The notes: generated by a model not told the origin, from the sequence alone. 39,147 nt of DNA from Minisyncoccota bacterium (GCA_040905385.1 JBBDRP010000002.1:745010-784156); one strand, 5' to 3'; positions 2,401 through 20,292 are shown, counted from the first letter of the stretch. A program made the numbers and translations.

Positions 2401-4932
2401 ATGGCCAAAGGAAAGAAAAAGAAGTCCTCAACCGCAAAGGATAAGCAGCAGTCACTGACCCAGAAGTTACTTCTGGGTAATCAGTCATCGCCAGTCCGAT
2501 CAGCCATTGCCGGCGTACTGATCGCGGCCGCGGCCGGATTCCTGGTTCTGGCGGCCTTTGAATCCGCCGGGTTTGTTGGTGATACAGTCCGCGGTTGGTT
2601 AGCGTATGCCTTTGGGACCGGGTACTGGTTTTTTGTTGCCGGCTTGATATTCTTTGCCTACGCGCTCCTGCGACGAAGTGCCAATCTTCCGACCTTGACG
2701 TGGGTGCATACGGTATCGGCGATCATCTTGTTTTTAACGATATTAGGATTGATTGATGTGGCAGCACCGGAGGCAGGAGGTATCATAGGAGCCTTGATTG
2801 CTGGTGGAGTTATTAGTGCCTTCTCTGTTTATGCCGGGGTGATACTGCTGCAGACAGTGGCGGTGGTAAGTTTGCTAATCTTGGTGGATGAGTACGTAGA
2901 TCTGAGTCGTCAGATAAATCTACCAGCGTTGTCATCTCTCGGTCTATCGAGTACCGCAGAGGATGAAGAGGAACAAGAAACTGAAGGAGAGATGAAAGTA
3001 ACCAACACCGCCCAGACGAATCAATCCACCAGTCAATCTGCTGAATCGCGTGAAGCAACAAAAGACTCCTCATCAGACCCTGAATCATCTGACGATGATC
3101 GGGCAAGCGGGACTACGAAGGGTAAGGATGGAGCCGGCTTTAGCGTGACGAAACCAAAGAAGCATAGTGAAGCTTCTTTTACTGCCTCTCCTCCCCTGAA
3201 AGGTGACTACACACCACCGCCGGTTGAGCTGTTGTCGCGCGATACCGGTGATCCGGAGGTAGGTGATGTAAAGGCGCGAGCTAATTTAATAAAACGAACA
3301 CTGGAAAACTTTAATATTGATGTCGAGATGGACGAAGTATCCATCGGGCCAACCGTCACCCGCTATGCGTTGAAGCCGGCGGAGGGCGTGCGTCTCAACC
3401 GCATCACGAACCTGCAGAACAATCTGGAGATGGCACTGGCGGCTCACCCCGTACGAATCGAGGCTCCGATCCCTGGTAAGTCCTTGGTAGGTGTCGAGGT
3501 TCCAAACACCTCTAAAACAACTGTCGGGCTGGCGGGGCTTATGGGATCAAAGCGGTTTCAGGATGATCCGGCTCCTCTTTTGATGGGTCTCGGACAGGGA
3601 ATTTCAGGTGAGACATACTTTTCGGACCTGAACAAGATGCCGCACCTCTTGATTGGTGGTGCAACCGGCGCGGGAAAGTCGGTGACGGTACATGTGCTGA
3701 TGAACTCGCTTCTCTTCCGCAACGGGCCAGACAATCTGAAGCTGATTATGGTGGACCCAAAGCGGGTTGAGCTAACGCTTTACAATGGTATTCCCCACCT
3801 CTTAACACCCGTTATCACCTCGGCCAAGAAGGCGATTCTGGCCTTGAAGTGGGCGGCTAAGGAGATGGATCGCCGCTACGATATTCTGGAAGAGAACGGC
3901 GCACGCGATATTTCTTCTTATCATAAAACCGTTCTACCAAAGCTAAAAAAACAGCACACCGAGGGTGAGCAGAGTCCAGACACGATGCCGTACATCGTGA
4001 TCGTGATTGATGAGATGGCGGACATGATGAGCGTTTATCCAAAGGAGCTGGAGGCAGTGATTGTCCGCATTGCGCAGATGTCGCGGGCAGTGGGAATTCA
4101 CCTGATTCTGAGCACACAGCGACCAGATGTGAGTATAATTACCGGTATCATTAAGGCCAACATTCCGGCTCGGATTGCGCTGCAGGTATCCTCACAGATT
4201 GATAGTCGTACTATTCTAGACACCAAGGGCGCTGAACAGTTGCTAGGTGCCGGAGATATGCTATTTCAGACCGGGGATATGTCTAAGCCGGTACGTATTC
4301 AGTCTGCCTATATCACCGAGGGTGAGGTAAAGAAGGTGGTAAAACACCTGAAGGATCAGTACGCCGATCAGCTGCAGGATACGGTGAGTCTCAAGGGTGA
4401 CGGCGATGGTGATGGCGGTAAAACCATCTTTGATGTAGCCGCCGAGGCCGAGGAGGATGAGGAGCGAGATGACAAGTACGAAGAGGCGCTGGAGACAGTG
4501 GTAAAGGCTGGTAAGGCCTCGACCTCGCATCTACAGCGAAAACTACGAGTGGGATACAGCCGAGCGGCGCGGATTATTGATGAACTGGAGGAGAACGGCG
4601 TTATCTCGGAAAAGGACGGCACGCGAGCTCGTGATGTCTTGATCACCCATAAAGAACTGGAGGCAGCGCGAGCCGGCGAGACCATCACGCATGAGGACTC
4701 CTCTGACGACTCGTCTCACGGCGAAGGCTCTGGCGAGACAAAGGAGGATTCCCATACCGTAGAACAAGGCGGGGCAGGCGACGACGACCCCACTCCCACG
4801 TCGTCTGGCGACTCTCCTAACGGCGGGGCAGGCTCCGGCGAGGGGGCAAGCGACCCTCAATCATCTGACGATGATCGGGCAAACGAAGAAATTGATGACA
4901 AGTACTTTGAGGCGTTAGAAGAGGATGAGTAA
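2401..4932 (+). CDS. ftsK: DNA translocase FtsK/SpoIIIE
   Basis: N-terminal multi-TM region, acidic linker, and a motor with Walker A GGATGAGKS and IVIDEMADMM. The gamma winged helix reads ASTSHLQRKLRVGYSRAARIIDELEENGVIS. An unusual ~130-aa acidic tail follows the gamma domain. Confidence 0.93.
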   Translation: MAKGKKKKSSTAKDKQQSLTQKLLLGNQSSPVRSAIAGVLIAAAAGFLVLAAFESAGFVGDTVRGWLAYAFGTGYWFFVAGLIFFAYALLRRSANLPTLTWVHTVSAIILFLTILGLIDVAAPEAGGIIGALIAGGVISAFSVYAGVILLQTVAVVSLLILVDEYVDLSRQINLPALSSLGLSSTAEDEEEQETEGEMKVTNTAQTNQSTSQSAESREATKDSSSDPESSDDDRASGTTKGKDGAGFSVTKPKKHSEASFTASPPLKGDYTPPPVELLSRDTGDPEVGDVKARANLIKRTLENFNIDVEMDEVSIGPTVTRYALKPAEGVRLNRITNLQNNLEMALAAHPVRIEAPIPGKSLVGVEVPNTSKTTVGLAGLMGSKRFQDDPAPLLMGLGQGISGETYFSDLNKMPHLLIGGATGAGKSVTVHVLMNSLLFRNGPDNLKLIMVDPKRVELTLYNGIPHLLTPVITSAKKAILALKWAAKEMDRRYDILEENGARDISSYHKTVLPKLKKQHTEGEQSPDTMPYIVIVIDEMADMMSVYPKELEAVIVRIAQMSRAVGIHLILSTQRPDVSIITGIIKANIPARIALQVSSQIDSRTILDTKGAEQLLGAGDMLFQTGDMSKPVRIQSAYITEGEVKKVVKHLKDQYADQLQDTVSLKGDGDGDGGKTIFDVAAEAEEDEERDDKYEEALETVVKAGKASTSHLQRKLRVGYSRAARIIDELEENGVISEKDGTRARDVLITHKELEAARAGETITHEDSSDDSSHGEGSGETKEDSHTVEQGGAGDDDPTPTSSGDSPNGGAGSGEGASDPQSSDDDRANEEIDDKYFEALEEDE

Positions 4933-4967
4933 AAAGTCGAAAGTCGAAAGTCGAAAGTCTAAAGTTC
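4933..4967 (+). repeat. Heptamer tandem repeat (AAAGTCG x3 plus two degenerate units)
   Basis: aaagtcg aaagtcg aaagtcg aaagtct aaagttc lies directly after the ftsK stop codon. Confidence 0.9.
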
Positions 4968-4986
4968 AGCTGGATACATATCAGCC

Positions 4987-5412
4987 ATGCTACTGCGACG
5001 AATACTACAAATCACCGCCGGTGGTGCCTTTCTGGCGCTGATTGTTGGCTATGGAATGTATCAGGCCGAGGACTTTCGCACCGGCCCCGTGATACAGATT
5101 ACCAGTCCTCAGGACGGATACCAGGCAGATGAACCCATGCTCAGTCTAGTGGGTAAAGCCGAGCGAGTATCGTACCTGAGTCTTAACGGTCGGCAGATTT
5201 ACACCGACACAAATGGGTACTTTGATGAGGAATTGCTGCTAACTGACGGGTATAATATAATAACGGTAGCAGGCAGAGATGCCTTTGACCGCCACACCGA
5301 GGAACATGTCCGTGTGATTTTAAACGCCTCCTCCTCCCTATTATTTTCTTCATATAACCTAAATAATGAGCAAGAATTCAGAGGACAAGAAGAGCAAGAA
5401 ACAGAAGAATGA
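4987..5412 (+). CDS. Hypothetical membrane-anchored protein
   Basis: 141-aa ORF with one N-terminal TM helix ([17 protein letters not shown]). No family recognised. Overlaps the recA start. Confidence 0.5.
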
Positions 5413-6679
5413 AGACGTAGAGAAGACAATAAAGAAGCTAAAGAGTCGCTTTGGTGACGGCGCGATTATGCGGCTGGGTGAACGCACCGACAAGGATGTC
5501 GAGGTTATTTCGACCGGCTCGATGGGACTTGATCAGGCGCTGGGTGTTGGCGGGCTTCCTCGTGGTCGTGTTGTCGAGATTTTTGGACCAGAAAGCTCGG
5601 GAAAAACGACGCTGGCCCTGCATGTAATTGCCGAGGCACAAAAGGTGGACGGAATTTGCGCCTTTGTAGACGCTGAGCACGCACTTGATCCCGAGTACGC
5701 TAAGAATCTAGGTGTAAAAACAGACGAGCTTTTGATTAGCCAGCCGAACACCGGTGAGGAGGCGCTGGAGATTACCGAAAGCCTCGTACGCAGTGGTGAT
5801 ATTGATGTGGTGGTGATTGACTCGGTAGCGGCGCTAACTCCGAAAGAAGAAATCGAGGGTGATATGGGTAAAAAGCACGTTGGTCACCAGGCGCGACTGA
5901 TGAGCCAGGCGATGCGTAAGCTAACCAGTGGTGTCTCCAAGAGCAAAACAATGGTGATTTTTATTAACCAGATCCGCATGAAGATTGGTGTCATGTTTGG
6001 AAACCCCGAGACAACACCGGGTGGACGAGCGCTAAAGTTCTACTCGTCGGTTCGTTTGGATATTCGACGCCGAGCACGGATTAAAAAGGATGAAGAGGTG
6101 GTCGGGTCCCGCACCAAGGTGAAGGTGGTGAAAAACAAGGTCGCCTCCCCTTTCCGTACGACAGAGTTCGATATTATGTACGGAGAAGGGATCTCTCGAG
6201 AGGGTGAGCTGATCGCACTAGGTGAGAAGTACGGTCTGATCGAGAAGGCAGGGTCATGGTACTCGCTAAGTAAGGAGCTGGATCTTGAGGATGCCGGCGA
6301 GACAATTGGTCAGGGGTATGACTCGGTGCGTACCTGGCTAAAGCAGCACAAGAAGGAGCAGGAGTTGATAAAGACAAAGATTCGCGAAGCTATGGAGGAA
6401 GAGGTAAAGGGCAAAAAAGCGGCTCGTGAAAAGGAGAACGAGCAGGTAGACGACCCTCAATCATCATCTGACGATGATGATCGGGCAAGCGAGAAGGATG
6501 TGGACAAGGGAGAAAAGAAGGAAAAGTCAGACAAGAATAGTAAGGATGAAGGTAAAGACAAGGATGAAAAGAGTGAGAAAAAAGAGAGTGATGGTAAGAA
6601 AAAAAAGAAGAAGGAATCTGGCAAGAATAATAAGAAAGGTATGAAGAAATCAGCTAAGAAGAAAGACAAAAGTAAGTAA
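5366..6679 (+). CDS. recA: Recombinase RecA with a long Lys/Glu/Asp-rich C-terminal tail
   Basis: [11 protein letters not shown], Walker [47 protein letters not shown] and NALKFY-like [15 protein letters not shown]. About 95 extra low-complexity residues at the C-terminus. Confidence 0.95.
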
Positions 6680-16683: not shown

Positions 16684-19600
16684 TTACAGTATCTTCGCCG
16701 TAAAGAAGAAGCCGTGCTCGGCGACATCATCACCATCATCTACATCTGTAAAGGAGATCTCTGCTACGGTGGCGGTATCGGTGATGTCATCAGTGAAGGC
16801 TTCCAGAAGCTCTCGGCCGGTCGCGTCGGTCTCGACCCCAAGCATAATTTCGGCGGCTGGATCAAGATCGGCCTGCTTGCGCAGCCGCTGGACGGTGCGG
16901 ATAAACTCGCGTACTACCCCTTTTCTCTTCAGCTCATCGGTGAGATCGGTATCGAGTACAGCCGGCTCGTCAATTTCCGTATCAAAATGGATTTCCTCAA
17001 CATTCACCTCATCAGCAAGGATTTCCAGAAGCTCATCCTTACCCGCCAGGCGGTCATCTCGTAGCGTTAGCTTCGCCAGCGGCTGACGGACCTTCAGCTC
17101 GGCCTGGCTACGGCGATCATGAGCGTGCGACACGGCTTCCCGAAGAACCCGCATATCGGCCAGTAACGTCTCAGTACCTTCGTGGTTACCATCAGCAGTC
17201 GGCCAGTCGGTCAGATGAACGCTTTCAACACTGCCGTCGGAAACATCGCGGTATATCTCCTCAGCAAGGAACGGCATAAATGGCGCCAGGACCTTGGACA
17301 CCTCCCGTAAAACATGCAGCGTTACATTAATTGCCTGGTCGCGATCGGCACCATCCTCACCGCGAATACGATCACGAGATCGACGAACATACCACGTAGA
17401 AAGGTCATCAATAAATTTCACAATTGGTTTGGTGGCCTTATCAATCTGGTAACTTCCTAAGCCGGCCGTCACATCGCCGATAAGCTGCCTAAGACAGGCC
17501 ATTATCCAGCGGTCCAGAACATTCTCAACCTGCACCTCTTTTGTGCGGGCGGTCTCGCGCTCCTCGCTGGTGGTATACATCTCGATAAATGAAAATGTAT
17601 TGGTAAGACGGTACATCACTTTCTTGACCACCTCATCTACCTCATCAGTAGAAAGGCTTACATTCTCTCCGCGGACAAGTGGAGAGTTTACGAGGAAGAA
17701 ACGAAGAGCATCAGCGCCTTGGTTGTTGAGAATGTCGGTTACAGGCGGGTAATTTCCTTTTGATTTACTCATCTTTTGCCCATCCTCTGCCATCACCAGG
17801 CCGTTTACGATCACATTTTCATACGGAGACTTTCCAAACAGCCCAACACCAAGAACCAGTGATGAATAGAACCAGCCTCGTGTCTGATCGAGACCTTCAG
17901 AAATAAAGTTGGCCGGGTAGCCCTTGCCTTCATCTGGTGAAAAGTCATCATTTTCAAACGGATAATGCTTGGAGGCGTATGACATCGATCCGGATTCAAA
18001 CCAGCAGTCAAAGACACTATCAATTCGCTGCATTTCTTTGCCGTTCTCTTCCCAGGTGACTTCATCAATGTATGGTCGATGAAAATCAAGCTCAAAGTCT
18101 CCGTTGTGGGGATACGGCCAAAAATCCAACTTTAAAATCGAGCCAGTATCCATATCACCTATGGTTCGTCGTCGCGTTATAATTTCGTCATTTGGAATTA
18201 ATTCAGATGTCCACTGCATAATGCGCAATGGTAATCCGTGACTAATAATCAGAATATTCTTATCTTGATAACTCTCATTAATATCAAACAAGGCTGACAG
18301 CATGCGAGTCCTAATATCTGTGTATGTCTCTCCTCCTTCAACCGTTTCCGAGAATGGCTCCAGATCATCCATGACTTCATGCCACTTTTCAACTTTTTTA
18401 CCCTCAAGTATTCCGGCCTTGTTCTCAGTAAATCGCTCATCGATGATTATTTGTTCAGTAGAAAGATCAAGGCTTTCTTTAACCATTTCTGCGGTCTCTT
18501 TCGTACGAAGCATTGGTGAAACAAAAACAAAGTCGATATCAATATCCTCTAGTTTAGTAATCGCTTCGCGAACCTCCTCTTTTCCTTTATTAGTTAAGTG
18601 ATGTTCGTTGCTCGGCAGTGAGCTCATAATTCGTTTGATATTATGATCCGCCTCGCCATGACGCATAGCAAAGAATTTGTTTGAGCTTTTGGTTTTCTCT
18701 TTAAGATCAGCAAGCGAGCTAATCACCTCGACTACTTCTCCATCGGCTGACTTCCAGACCGGGAGCGGTGCACCCCAGAATCGCTCGCGGGAAATCGCCC
18801 AGTCGCGGGCACCTTCCAGCCAGTTACCAAATCGATTAGAGCCGATAGCTTTAGGGACCCAGCCAACATTCTCATTGGCAGCCACTAGGTCGTCCTTGAA
18901 GGAGCTGACCTCTACGAACCAGGAAGTAGTTGCATAGTTTAGAAGCGGCGTCTCGCAGCGCCAACAAAGCGGATACTGGTGATGAAGATTCTCTTTATTA
19001 AAGAGAAGGTCCTTATCCAACAGATACCGCAAAATTTCAATGTCGGCGGAGAGATGCTCTTCATTGCCTTCATCACGCGGCTTTACCTTCATGCCAGCAA
19101 AGTCCGTAACGTCGGCGGTAAATTCCCCCGATTCTGTTACGTGATGAACGATAGGAATACCGTGATCTTCGGCCAAGGAGAGGTCATCGGCACCAAAGGC
19201 GGGCGCAATGTGGACTAGGCCGGTTCCTTCCTCGAGCGTAACGAAGTCGGCGCCGTACACCTGCCATGCCCCGGCCTTGTTCTCGATTTCCTTGTCCTGA
19301 AAGTAGCTAAATGGCGATTGATATATTTTTCCAATAAGTTTTTCTCCAGAGAAATTTTCGGAGTCTATATCATCTTGCATGCTTAAGAATAAAAGCTTAT
19401 GAAGTTTTCCTTCATTTTTTTGAGCCGCTTCTTTAGAAAAAATATAACCACCTGATTCAAAATCTACATCTAAATCATATTTCTTAGGATCGAAATTTTC
19501 AGGAATCACAACTTTTACATACTCTAATTCTGGATTCACCGCTACCGCCATGTTGCCTGGTAGCGTCCATGGTGTCGTGGTCCAGATCAAGAGACTGGTG

Positions 19601-20292
19601 TCCGGCGCATCAGCCAGCGGTAGCTTTACCGTCACGGCAATGTCCTTCTGTTCGACGTAGCCTTGGTTAACCTCAAAATTCGATAGTGGTGTCTCACAGC
19701 GCGGACAGACATGCATCGACTTGAAGCCCTCATAAACGAGATCTTTTTTGTCTAACTCACTAAAAGCCCACCAGATGCTCTCGGTGTAGCTGGAATCCAT
19801 GGTGCGGTAGTCATTGTCCATATCCACCCAGCGACCAGTACGGGGAATAATCCGCTTCCAGTCTTCTGCATACTGCAGTACAAAATCCTTGGCGACCTCA
19901 TTAAACTTTTCAATTCCGTACTCAGAAATATCTTTTTTCGTCTCTAACCCCAGATGATCCTCAACCTGATTTTCCAGTGGAAGGCCATGTGTATCCCAGC
20001 CCCACTGACGCTCGACGTGGTAGCCCTGCATGGTCTTGAAGCGAGGAATGACATCCTTGATGGTACCGGGAAGAATGTGTCCGTAATGCGGCAGTCCAGT
20101 GGCAAATGGCGGACCATCATAGAAGACAAACTCACCCTTTGGGGATTCTTTGGCAAGCGTCTTCTCGAAGATATTATTATCGCGCCAGAATTCTAAGGTT
20201 ACTTCCTCACGCTTAGCAATATCTGACTTCTTCCCTTGCCCTTCCGTAGCTTTAGCGGAGGAGGGTGATTTCTCCTGGTTTTGGTCACTCAT
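16684..20292 (-). CDS. ileS: Isoleucyl-tRNA synthetase (type 2-like) with an internal histidine-phosphatase domain insertion
   Basis: PPFATGLPHYGH, TTTPWTLPGN, RDWAISRERFWGAPLPVW, HRPYIDEV, WFESGSMSYA and KMSKSKGN. Residues ~537-730 form a foreign RHGE...SHG domain. Confidence 0.95.
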   Translation of the reverse strand: MSDQNQEKSPSSAKATEGQGKKSDIAKREEVTLEFWRDNNIFEKTLAKESPKGEFVFYDGPPFATGLPHYGHILPGTIKDVIPRFKTMQGYHVERQWGWDTHGLPLENQVEDHLGLETKKDISEYGIEKFNEVAKDFVLQYAEDWKRIIPRTGRWVDMDNDYRTMDSSYTESIWWAFSELDKKDLVYEGFKSMHVCPRCETPLSNFEVNQGYVEQKDIAVTVKLPLADAPDTSLLIWTTTPWTLPGNMAVAVNPELEYVKVVIPENFDPKKYDLDVDFESGGYIFSKEAAQKNEGKLHKLLFLSMQDDIDSENFSGEKLIGKIYQSPFSYFQDKEIENKAGAWQVYGADFVTLEEGTGLVHIAPAFGADDLSLAEDHGIPIVHHVTESGEFTADVTDFAGMKVKPRDEGNEEHLSADIEILRYLLDKDLLFNKENLHHQYPLCWRCETPLLNYATTSWFVEVSSFKDDLVAANENVGWVPKAIGSNRFGNWLEGARDWAISRERFWGAPLPVWKSADGEVVEVISSLADLKEKTKSSNKFFAMRHGEADHNIKRIMSSLPSNEHHLTNKGKEEVREAITKLEDIDIDFVFVSPMLRTKETAEMVKESLDLSTEQIIIDERFTENKAGILEGKKVEKWHEVMDDLEPFSETVEGGETYTDIRTRMLSALFDINESYQDKNILIISHGLPLRIMQWTSELIPNDEIITRRRTIGDMDTGSILKLDFWPYPHNGDFELDFHRPYIDEVTWEENGKEMQRIDSVFDCWFESGSMSYASKHYPFENDDFSPDEGKGYPANFISEGLDQTRGWFYSSLVLGVGLFGKSPYENVIVNGLVMAEDGQKMSKSKGNYPPVTDILNNQGADALRFFLVNSPLVRGENVSLSTDEVDEVVKKVMYRLTNTFSFIEMYTTSEERETARTKEVQVENVLDRWIMACLRQLIGDVTAGLGSYQIDKATKPIVKFIDDLSTWYVRRSRDRIRGEDGADRDQAINVTLHVLREVSKVLAPFMPFLAEEIYRDVSDGSVESVHLTDWPTADGNHEGTETLLADMRVLREAVSHAHDRRSQAELKVRQPLAKLTLRDDRLAGKDELLEILADEVNVEEIHFDTEIDEPAVLDTDLTDELKRKGVVREFIRTVQRLRKQADLDPAAEIMLGVETDATGRELLEAFTDDITDTATVAEISFTDVDDGDDVAEHGFFFTAKIL

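Follow-up and report, generated by a model that had tools for sequence, protein, structure and literature searches.

The stretch of DNA analysed here (hereafter the window) comprises 39,147 nucleotides from a Minisyncoccota bacterium (GCA_040905385.1 JBBDRP010000002.1:745010-784156) and carries, within two of its housekeeping genes, three copies of a short palindromic repeat. The first of these genes, ftsK (2401..4932, + strand; 843 aa), encodes a membrane domain, a low-complexity linker, a motor domain, a gamma domain and an acidic C-tail (Pfam FtsK_alpha, FtsK_SpoIIIE and FtsK_gamma); the second, recA (5366..6679, + strand; 437 aa), encodes a protein with a long Lys/Glu/Asp-rich C-tail.

Three in-frame copies of one repeat in ftsK and recA

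Copy 1 (GACCCTGAATCATCTGACGATGATCGGGCAAGCG, 3076-3109, + strand) codes for DPESSDDDRAS, residues 226-236 in the FtsK linker, and scores 61 bits with a covariance model of the repeat. Copy 2 (GACCCTCAATCATCTGACGATGATCGGGCAAACG, 4852-4885, + strand; 58.8 bits) codes for DPQSSDDDRAN, residues 818-828 in the FtsK C-tail after the gamma domain, and copy 3 (GACCCTCAATCATCATCTGACGATGATGATCGGGCAAGCG, 6452-6491, + strand; 51.9 bits) for a segment of 13 residues (363-375) in the RecA C-tail. The repeat is 34 nt in its basic form, with longer forms of 40-48 nt. All three copies are in frame with the host open reading frame (ORF), every copy being read in the same frame (D-P-x-S-S-D-D-D-R-A-S), and the spacings between them are 1776 and 1600 nt: all lie within 3.4 kb on one strand.

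Identity among the copies amounts to 32-34 of 34 nt and includes the non-repetitive parts GACCCT and CGGGCAAGCG. A 34-mer search allowing up to 3 mismatches matched copies 1 and 2, with 0 matches expected (100 dinucleotide shuffles), and a repeat finder united all three copies into a single family (D1). Neither of these methods, nor the covariance model, found a further copy on either strand of the window; the model, built from 7 copies and applied to the window and 27 other loci (together 316 kb), revealed no additional ones. Because all three copies recur in an independent assembly (Logan SRR27977661, L003), the repeat is not an assembly artefact.

At the heart of the repeat lies a conserved 19-nt core, AAATCATCTGACGATGATC, which contains the 6-4-6 palindrome ATCATC-TGAC-GATGAT; outer CCC/GGG pairs also fold. 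In copy 3 each arm of the palindrome is one triplet longer (+ATC on the left, +GAT on the right), both arms having been lengthened together with the frame kept. The palindrome exists in part because the Ser codons TCA and TCT are complementary to the Asp codon GAT. An earlier reading made from the sequence alone (the sequence-only reading) had described the three copies, with their coordinates, plus strand and in-frame placement, together with the palindrome and its symmetric lengthening in recA: the former agree exactly with the sequence and an ORF check, and both features of the palindrome were confirmed. At ~50-58% GC, against 47%, the repeat does not stand out by composition in the window lineage.

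Absence from relatives and occurrence in other genes

The window was assigned to the Paceibacteria/Parcubacteria, members of the Candidate Phyla Radiation (CPR), by RecA and DnaK homologues; among the related RecA proteins is one from 'Parcubacteria group bacterium SW_6_46_9'. Comparison was made with the closest relatives, whose syntenic loci hold recA and the whole of ftsK (L004-L014, L027 and L031) or recA with little or no ftsK (L028-L030). Their RecA proteins are 88-94% identical to that of the window, and other shared proteins are 50-92% identical, mostly ~70-80%. In these loci (L004-L014, L027-L031) the repeat is absent from all three sites and from everywhere else. Where the RecA of relatives reads ENEQVD followed directly by EKKD, that of the window reads ENEQVD, then 13 further residues, then EKD. 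In the FtsK tail, copy 2 lies inside a 21-aa window-specific segment that is absent from L004, and the FtsK linkers of L004, L027 and L031 are without the copy-1 sequence, these linkers being too diverged for a clean indel call. An unbiased indel scan of 11 shared genes identified the repeat regions as the sole sizeable window-specific intragenic insertions, a further 8-aa difference being located at the extreme C-terminal end of a TatD-like ORF. Absence from the related loci that were fetched points to lineage-specific gain of the window copies, and is counted in favour of the account of their origin proposed below.

At the position orthologous to copy 2 in the FtsK tail of L027 (3913-3945), GACTCATCCTCATCTGATGAGGATGAG codes for DSSSSDEDE and bears a weak likeness to the repeat (12 bits). 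Pre-existing runs of Ser/Asp codons may provide microhomology that attracts the repeat.

Scans covered 241 million metagenome records, searched for the core, and 185,579 species-representative genomes. The metagenome scan gave 12 matches, 10 of them by chance (in other frames or contexts) and 2 clearly homologous (L020 and L025); L021 and L024, which score 26-29 bits with the covariance model, were treated as chance. The species-representative genomes yielded no true copy and only 2 chance matches (in Gemmatimonadaceae and Megasphaera), and viral contigs yielded 0 matches, a codon-degenerate pattern scan included. In L020 the repeat (GACCCTAAATCATCTGACGATGATCGGGCAAGCG) lies at the 3' end of dnaK, in the C-tail of a DnaK that ends ...EEEDPKSSDDDRASEEE before the stop codon. 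The same sequence, GACCCTAAATCATCTGACGATGATCGGGCAAGCG, with a 34-mer identical to that of L020, is found in the C-tail of DnaK P0121 from two Logan samples (L032 and L033), L020 and P0121 representing two further Paceibacteria lineages, while the tail of DnaK P0122 and P0124 (L034-L036) carries the variant GAATCTAAATCATCTGACGATGATCAAGGAAGCG, coding for ESKSSDDDQGS, in which the 19-nt core is intact and the outer arms are changed. In L025, a contig of 33% GC, a longer form (AACCCCGTAAAATCATCTGACGATGATCACGGGGCAAGCGGGG; protein NPVKSSDDDHGASGVK) occupies the linker that joins the 5'-nuclease domain to the rest of DNA polymerase I (Pol I, encoded by polA).

The repeat is absent from DnaK P0126 (L037), which is 95% identical to P0121, from >20 other related DnaK proteins obtained in a DnaK homologue search, and from DnaK P0135 of a 'Candidatus Paceibacterota bacterium' metagenome-assembled genome; P0135 is probably the window genome's own DnaK. 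Since the repeat occurs in FtsK and RecA, in DnaK and in Pol I of separate lineages, the gene occupied differs by lineage and the distribution is patchy. The sequence-only reading had suggested looking for the segment in orthologous FtsK and RecA, and had reasoned that a motif confined to its three sites, with orthologues encoding the same peptide by freely varying codons, would signify ordinary protein-level conservation. Neither holds: DnaK and Pol I carry copies, and the FtsK and RecA orthologues lack the segment altogether rather than holding it in a version with varied codons.

Every site is a variable linker or tail. For the RecA C-tail a low-confidence AlphaFold model (mean predicted local distance difference test score, pLDDT, 52) has residues 360-437 as coil with pLDDT <50, which lends weak support to disorder. 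Of the six frames in which the repeat could be read, three are open, and all ~5 independent sites use the hydrophilic one; were the open frames equally likely, use of a single frame would have a probability of about (1/3)^4 = 0.012.

Comparison of the copies distinguishes conservation of DNA from conservation of peptide (flank identity and the split between outer and core positions were counted by hand from alignments). Between L020 and L032 at least 36 nt of the repeat are identical (36/36), against 35/50 (70%) in the 50 nt just upstream; at a background of 70% the chance of 36-nt identity is 0.7^36 ~ 3e-6. Between L034 and L032, 6/15 outer positions differ and 0/19 core positions (hypergeometric p = 0.004), and in neighbouring DnaK codons approximately half of the synonymous sites differ. 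Almost every substitution that separates the copies alters an amino acid (codon 3 as E/Q/K; S>N, D>E, P>S, R>Q, A>G): the one synonymous change among all copies, CCT>CCC in L025, is stem-lengthening, and no synonymous or codon variants of the core peptide were present in the loci fetched. Exhaustive HMMER searches with three 30-aa window segments against 1.84 billion representatives returned 0 matches at E <= 0.001. This preponderance of non-synonymous change is the opposite of the outcome expected under purifying selection on the peptide. The substitution pattern points either to copying in the very recent past or to a constraint acting on DNA or RNA, and the identity of the core, despite ~30% divergence of the flanks and a 33%-GC host, may reflect recent horizontal copying or functional constraint on the core.

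The palindrome has grown in L025 as well as in recA. In L025 the outer stem has changed from CCC/GGG to CCCCGT/ACGGGG, with bases added on both sides and the frame kept, and the element is significantly structured (z = -3.6). Template switching is known to homogenise and expand the arms of inverted repeats (PMC8794818, PMC8604942, PMC7202029). The coordinated growth of the arms shows that a hairpin forms in DNA; selection for structure is not required.

The same polA gene of L025 holds a second in-frame palindromic insertion (HPVKSSKAGAKQFNGVK, 2230-2280; 51 nt / 17 aa). This insertion – clean relative to Taq polymerase and situated just before motif C – has both termini in common with the first element (ACCCnGTnAAATC ... 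ACGGGGTAAA), bears terminal inverted repeats of 12-13 nt, and is strongly structured (z = -5.5), which suggests a wider family of in-frame mini-palindromes in the low-GC L025 organism.

The junctions of the repeat show short matches of several kinds. The recA junction (GTAGACGA / ...GCAAGCGA / GAAGG) has a 3-nt CGA microhomology, and at the copy in the ftsK linker the left flank, TCATCAGAC, resembles TCATCTGAC of the core. The left end of copy 2 is abutted by GGGGCAAGC (4843..4851, + strand), which forms a direct repeat with the 3' end of that copy (CGGGCAAAC, 4876-4884). Just 5' of copy 2 is a local duplication in the FtsK tail (4768-4787 and 4822-4841, within 4768..4841, + strand; GGCGGGGCAGGC..., translated GGAGDDDPTPTSSGDSPNGGAGSGEGAS...; repeat family D3), which shows that this tail grows through short local copying. 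The empty DnaK site of L037 shares TCTGA.GA with the filled site and, together with L034, CAAGG. To judge from these sequences, the filled DnaK site looks like a patch replacement with microhomology rather than a clean insertion; insertion of a clean, transposon-like kind, as might be expected of the miniature insertion envisaged in the sequence-only reading, was not seen.

Origin of the repeat and competing explanations

The explanation that we prefer, and which we consider an even call, is that the copies belong to a mini-repeat propagated as DNA: template switching, assisted by microhomology or the hairpin, or else gene conversion of short patches would have spread it, and only disordered acidic segments would tolerate it. 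Unrelated housekeeping genes – ftsK (twice) and recA in the window lineage, dnaK and polA in others – would have received it by copy-and-paste, through template switching during replication or repair or through short-patch gene conversion; copying would be primed by microhomology in Ser/Asp-rich codon runs, with the hairpin assisting. Seeding between lineages would probably occur by recombination with imported DNA, and selection would remove those copies that are not read as an acidic peptide in a disordered linker or tail. If survival is possible only with the hydrophilic frame in a disordered acidic segment, then every copy is expected to be in frame and in the same orientation. Spread is thus probably by recombination or template switching rather than by transposition. 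The sequences show that the copies are homologous as DNA, that orthologues lack them and that they lie in variable segments; we infer the copying mechanism and the horizontal seeding, and also a lack of function: the repeat itself is probably neutral or selfish, and not a functional protein motif. Of the two possibilities left standing by the sequence-only reading, a nucleotide-level element and a very recently copied peptide motif, an in-frame insertion resembling the Rickettsia palindromic elements (RPEs) is favoured, while the peptide motif is weakened.

Several observations weigh against this proposal. Copy number is very low: 3 in 39 kb, none in the other 35 kb of the window and 2 true metagenome matches, with 0 or 1 copy in each of the other 16-22-kb loci. 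No transposase was found in the 39-kb window, and in the window copies neither terminal inverted repeats nor target-site duplications are clear and consistent. Since copies were seen neither between genes nor in another frame or on the opposite strand, peptide-level selection is inseparable from tolerance. The hairpin of the sequence-only reading is real as a palindrome; strong or significant folding was not seen in the window copies, whose fold is weak (DNA dG -3.8 to -7.5 kcal/mol, z -1.5 to -1.8 versus shuffles). Identity across lineages, a 33%-GC organism included, would require either horizontal transfer of a ~36-nt patch or strong constraint. Finally, L034 and L037 suggest that the DnaK tail may have possessed some of this sequence natively, in which case the DnaK copies may have been inherited vertically and not inserted.

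The same facts can be read at the level of protein. On this explanation DPxSSDDDRAS would be a short linear motif (SLiM) – a docking, phosphorylation or sorting tag – recently gained by FtsK, RecA, Pol I and DnaK, with identity of the DNA merely reflecting the recency of copying. All copies are in one frame and in exposed disordered segments, their carriers are akin in function (ATP-driven or DNA-handling proteins), codon 3, the variable one, specifies hydrophilic residues only (E, Q, K), and L034 departs by conservative changes (D>E, P>S, R>Q, A>G). However, the peptide is entirely missing from orthologues, including a 95%-identical DnaK and 88-94%-identical RecAs; the core is without synonymous variation though about half of the flanking synonymous sites differ; changes among copies are nearly all non-synonymous; and the arm extensions keep a palindrome for which there is no reason at the peptide level. 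A peptide motif is, in our judgement, unlikely. Decidedly unlikely is a functional cis-acting nucleic-acid site, in which a protein or an RNA would bind or recognise the 19-nt core, as a site or hairpin in DNA or mRNA, whether as a regulon tag common to chaperone and DNA-maintenance genes or as an enzyme site that drives biased gene conversion. Such a site would account for a core that does not vary among 7 copies (~5 lineages, 4 genes) although the outer parts do, and for its retention in L034, whose outer arms are gone. Sites for dimeric DNA-binding proteins usually have the architecture of a 6-4-6 inverted repeat, and dnaK, recA, ftsK and polA make a plausible stress/repair set. Yet the repeat has no match in Rfam, and a promoter/terminator scan revealed no association with either; its intragenic positions are inconsistent (mid-gene linkers and 3' tails), its hairpin is weak, the window holds no complementary (antisense) copy, and most related genomes do without the repeat at the same genes. 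We are similarly doubtful of the notion that the core is a recognised site in a self-propagating 'homing patch' (transformation-coupled biased short-patch gene conversion among co-occurring CPR bacteria), or a DNA or RNA tag that couples the expression or processing of dnaK, recA, ftsK and polA.

Three further explanations concern mobility, uptake and chance. A miniature element mobilised by transposase could be either a hairpin of the repetitive extragenic palindromic (REP) or REPIN kind, moved by a Y1 transposase (REP-associated tyrosine transposase, RAYT, or IS200 type), or an ultra-short miniature inverted-repeat transposable element (MITE). An imperfect palindrome of 34-48 nt fits REP dimensions (PMC3116915, PMC3337134), a Y1 transposase gene (PF01797) lies ~4 kb upstream of ftsK in L004 and L005, and the 51-nt polA insertion of L025 has the shared termini, terminal inverted repeats and pronounced structure described above. 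This explanation is nevertheless improbable: the window has no transposase and a tiny number of copies, neither a conserved target sequence nor a target duplication is evident, and comparison of the empty with the filled DnaK site does not reveal a clean insertion. The Y1 transposase of the relatives, moreover, is flanked by an unrelated perfect palindrome of its own, CTGTGCAACACTnAGTGTTGCACAG, which is absent from the window; it flanks the IS200-like Y1 gene in L004 (2393-2425 and 3079-3119) and L005 (917-941 and 1624-1648), and L006 has one copy at the same place (128-152). The Y1 cassette, which sits upstream of ftsK in relatives, is itself absent from the window, and a link to REP/RAYT was rejected on the ground that the cognate palindrome is a different one. 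It is very improbable that the repeat is a signal for DNA uptake or recombination concentrated in genome-maintenance genes, of the type of the neisserial DNA uptake sequence (DUS) or the Pasteurellaceae uptake signal sequence (USS). CPR bacteria are thought to depend on imported DNA, and the hosts of the repeat are genome-maintenance genes. Within coding regions USS occupy poorly conserved protein segments and preferred frames (PMC2817400, PMC2346458), a point in favour of this explanation. But 3 copies in 39 kb, 0-1 in the other 16-22-kb loci and almost none across metagenome collections represent a density far too low for the uptake signal that the sequence-only reading had entertained, and close relatives are without the repeat. 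Barely credible is a chance or convergent likeness of Ser/Asp-rich low-complexity coding sequence, or an artefact of assembly. The host tails are of low complexity, and with complementary Ser (TCA/TCT) and Asp (GAT) codons runs of the form SS..DD easily look palindromic; but identity over 32-34 of 34 nt, non-repetitive parts included, where 0 is expected, and the presence of copies in independent assemblies from different projects effectively refute it.

Among known systems the closest likeness is to RPEs: in-frame palindromic repeats in many unrelated housekeeping genes, always giving a similar peptide, tolerated at protein surfaces and patchy among relatives (PMC10969869). As with RPEs, one family is present in several unrelated genes (FtsK at two sites, RecA, DnaK and Pol I, all in one frame). 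RPEs, however, measure ~100-150 bp, fall into ten families (RPE-1 to RPE-10) and are present in dozens of copies per genome in obligate intracellular Alphaproteobacteria, whereas the present repeat is 34-48 nt long (11-16 aa), has very few copies, belongs to Paceibacteria (CPR) and is confined to disordered acidic tails and linkers. There is no sequence relationship between them, and the repeat matches no Rfam family. As to the tens of dispersed copies that characterise RPEs, the 39 kb of the source genome that are visible hold 3 copies in one cluster, the remaining 35 kb being free of the repeat. The optional GC clusters of yeast mitochondria, found in VAR1/rps3, are likewise short palindromes (~30-50 bp), GC-rich with respect to the host genome, optional inside a protein gene, able to alter protein size and tied to recombination and gene conversion (PMC4464245). 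The L025 copies resemble them as GC-rich hairpins in a 33%-GC genome; but GC clusters are organellar, high-copy and mostly intergenic, and the repeat of the window lineage does not stand out in composition.

Mutation by template switching at quasipalindromes would explain the coordinated lengthening of arms in recA and L025, multi-nucleotide changes that create or extend stems, and junction microhomology (PMC8794818, PMC8604942, PMC7202029). Known cases concern single loci, whereas a repeat at several loci and in several lineages needs copying between loci or genomes. With REP/REPIN-RAYT systems the repeat shares the dimensions of an imperfect palindrome (20-40 nt) and the presence of a Y1 transposase in relatives of the window organism. 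REPs, by contrast, lie outside genes, reach tens to hundreds per genome and flank a cognate RAYT, while the present copies are few, all 7 are intragenic, and no Y1 gene flanked by the repeat was found in the window or among its relatives examined. MITEs have terminal inverted repeats and a target-site duplication and are usually 50-500 bp; the window copies have only outer CCC/GGG pairs, the CGA at recA and, at the ftsK tail, 9 nt that duplicate the end of the element. The L025 forms, with terminal inverted repeats of 6-13 nt, are longer relatives that come closer to MITEs. DUS and USS are also short repeats biased to genome-maintenance genes, those within genes favouring tolerant regions and particular frames (PMC2817400). 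The density of the present repeat is orders of magnitude lower and no genome-wide over-representation was seen. Uptake signals occur in hundreds to thousands per genome, roughly one per kb, a copy number that the repeat does not approach. A SLiM is conserved in orthologues with varying synonymous codons; here the orthologues are without the peptide and the fetched loci contain no synonymous variants. Nor do the copies form a CRISPR array (non-coding repeats of 28-37 nt with regular unique spacers of ~30-40 nt), being 1776 and 1600 nt apart inside ftsK and recA. By analogy, the repeat would seem to work like RPEs and the GC clusters of VAR1 but on a much smaller scale; it falls outside the RPE, REP/RAYT, MITE, DUS and SLiM classes.

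Surroundings of the repeat and significance

The window is otherwise an ordinary housekeeping region: in addition to ftsK and recA it contains ssb, the genes for S6 and S18, tatD, aminoacyl-tRNA synthetases and recO, as well as thyA, folA, glyA, nusG, the gene for L11, secDF and ftsW. Its lineage is taken as salt-adapted from the acid-rich proteins and from the origin of related samples.

At its very C-terminus FtsK has a sequence (EIDDKYFEALEEDE, 4894-4919) that recapitulates the beginning of its gamma domain (RDDKYEEALE, 4468-4493). The motif EIDDKYF is kept at the C-terminus of all related FtsK proteins, and the intervening tail is hypervariable; the C-terminal repeat may mimic the first helix of that domain and serve in autoregulation. 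The start of recA overlaps by 47 nt the 3' end of an ORF of 141 aa (4987-5412; Glucodextran_B-like domain), and the gene order ftsK-ORF-recA is conserved in all relatives. Upstream of ftsK, a perfect direct repeat of 41 nt (GCCTGTGAGAGGTAGCTGAGAAGAGGTGGGCTCGCTCTAAG, 1088-1128 and 2247-2287) flanks a gene of the DeoR helix-turn-helix type (1262-2023, - strand); related 19-nt repeats lie nearby (1023-1041 and 1142-1160), with an inverted partner at 2147-2165. The 41-nt repeat is absent from every related locus examined, and may be a regulatory or structured-RNA repeat. Elsewhere in the window, a class I aminoacyl-tRNA synthetase (1202 aa; 16684-20292, - strand) – which we take to be the isoleucyl enzyme, Pfam naming no amino acid – contains a histidine-phosphatase domain (PF00300; residues 542-701, E = 7e-28) within its catalytic domain; the same architecture is found in L027 and L031.

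The genomes of CPR bacteria (Patescibacteria) are tiny and are usually deemed poor in repeats and mobile DNA. If the proposed account is true, then the present repeat, at 11-16 codons, would be the smallest known in-frame 'hitch-hiking' repeat and the first such repeat described in this group. Should the core be a recognised site – a clearly unlikely outcome – episymbiotic bacteria would harbour, in this repeat, an in-frame genetic element of a new and ultra-small class. On the account that we propose, the disordered acidic tails of essential proteins would be landing pads for short DNA patches that move between genes and between lineages. This would bear on the evolution of low-complexity protein regions, on the extent of recombination among uncultured episymbionts, and on how short shared 'motifs' in metagenomic proteins are to be interpreted.

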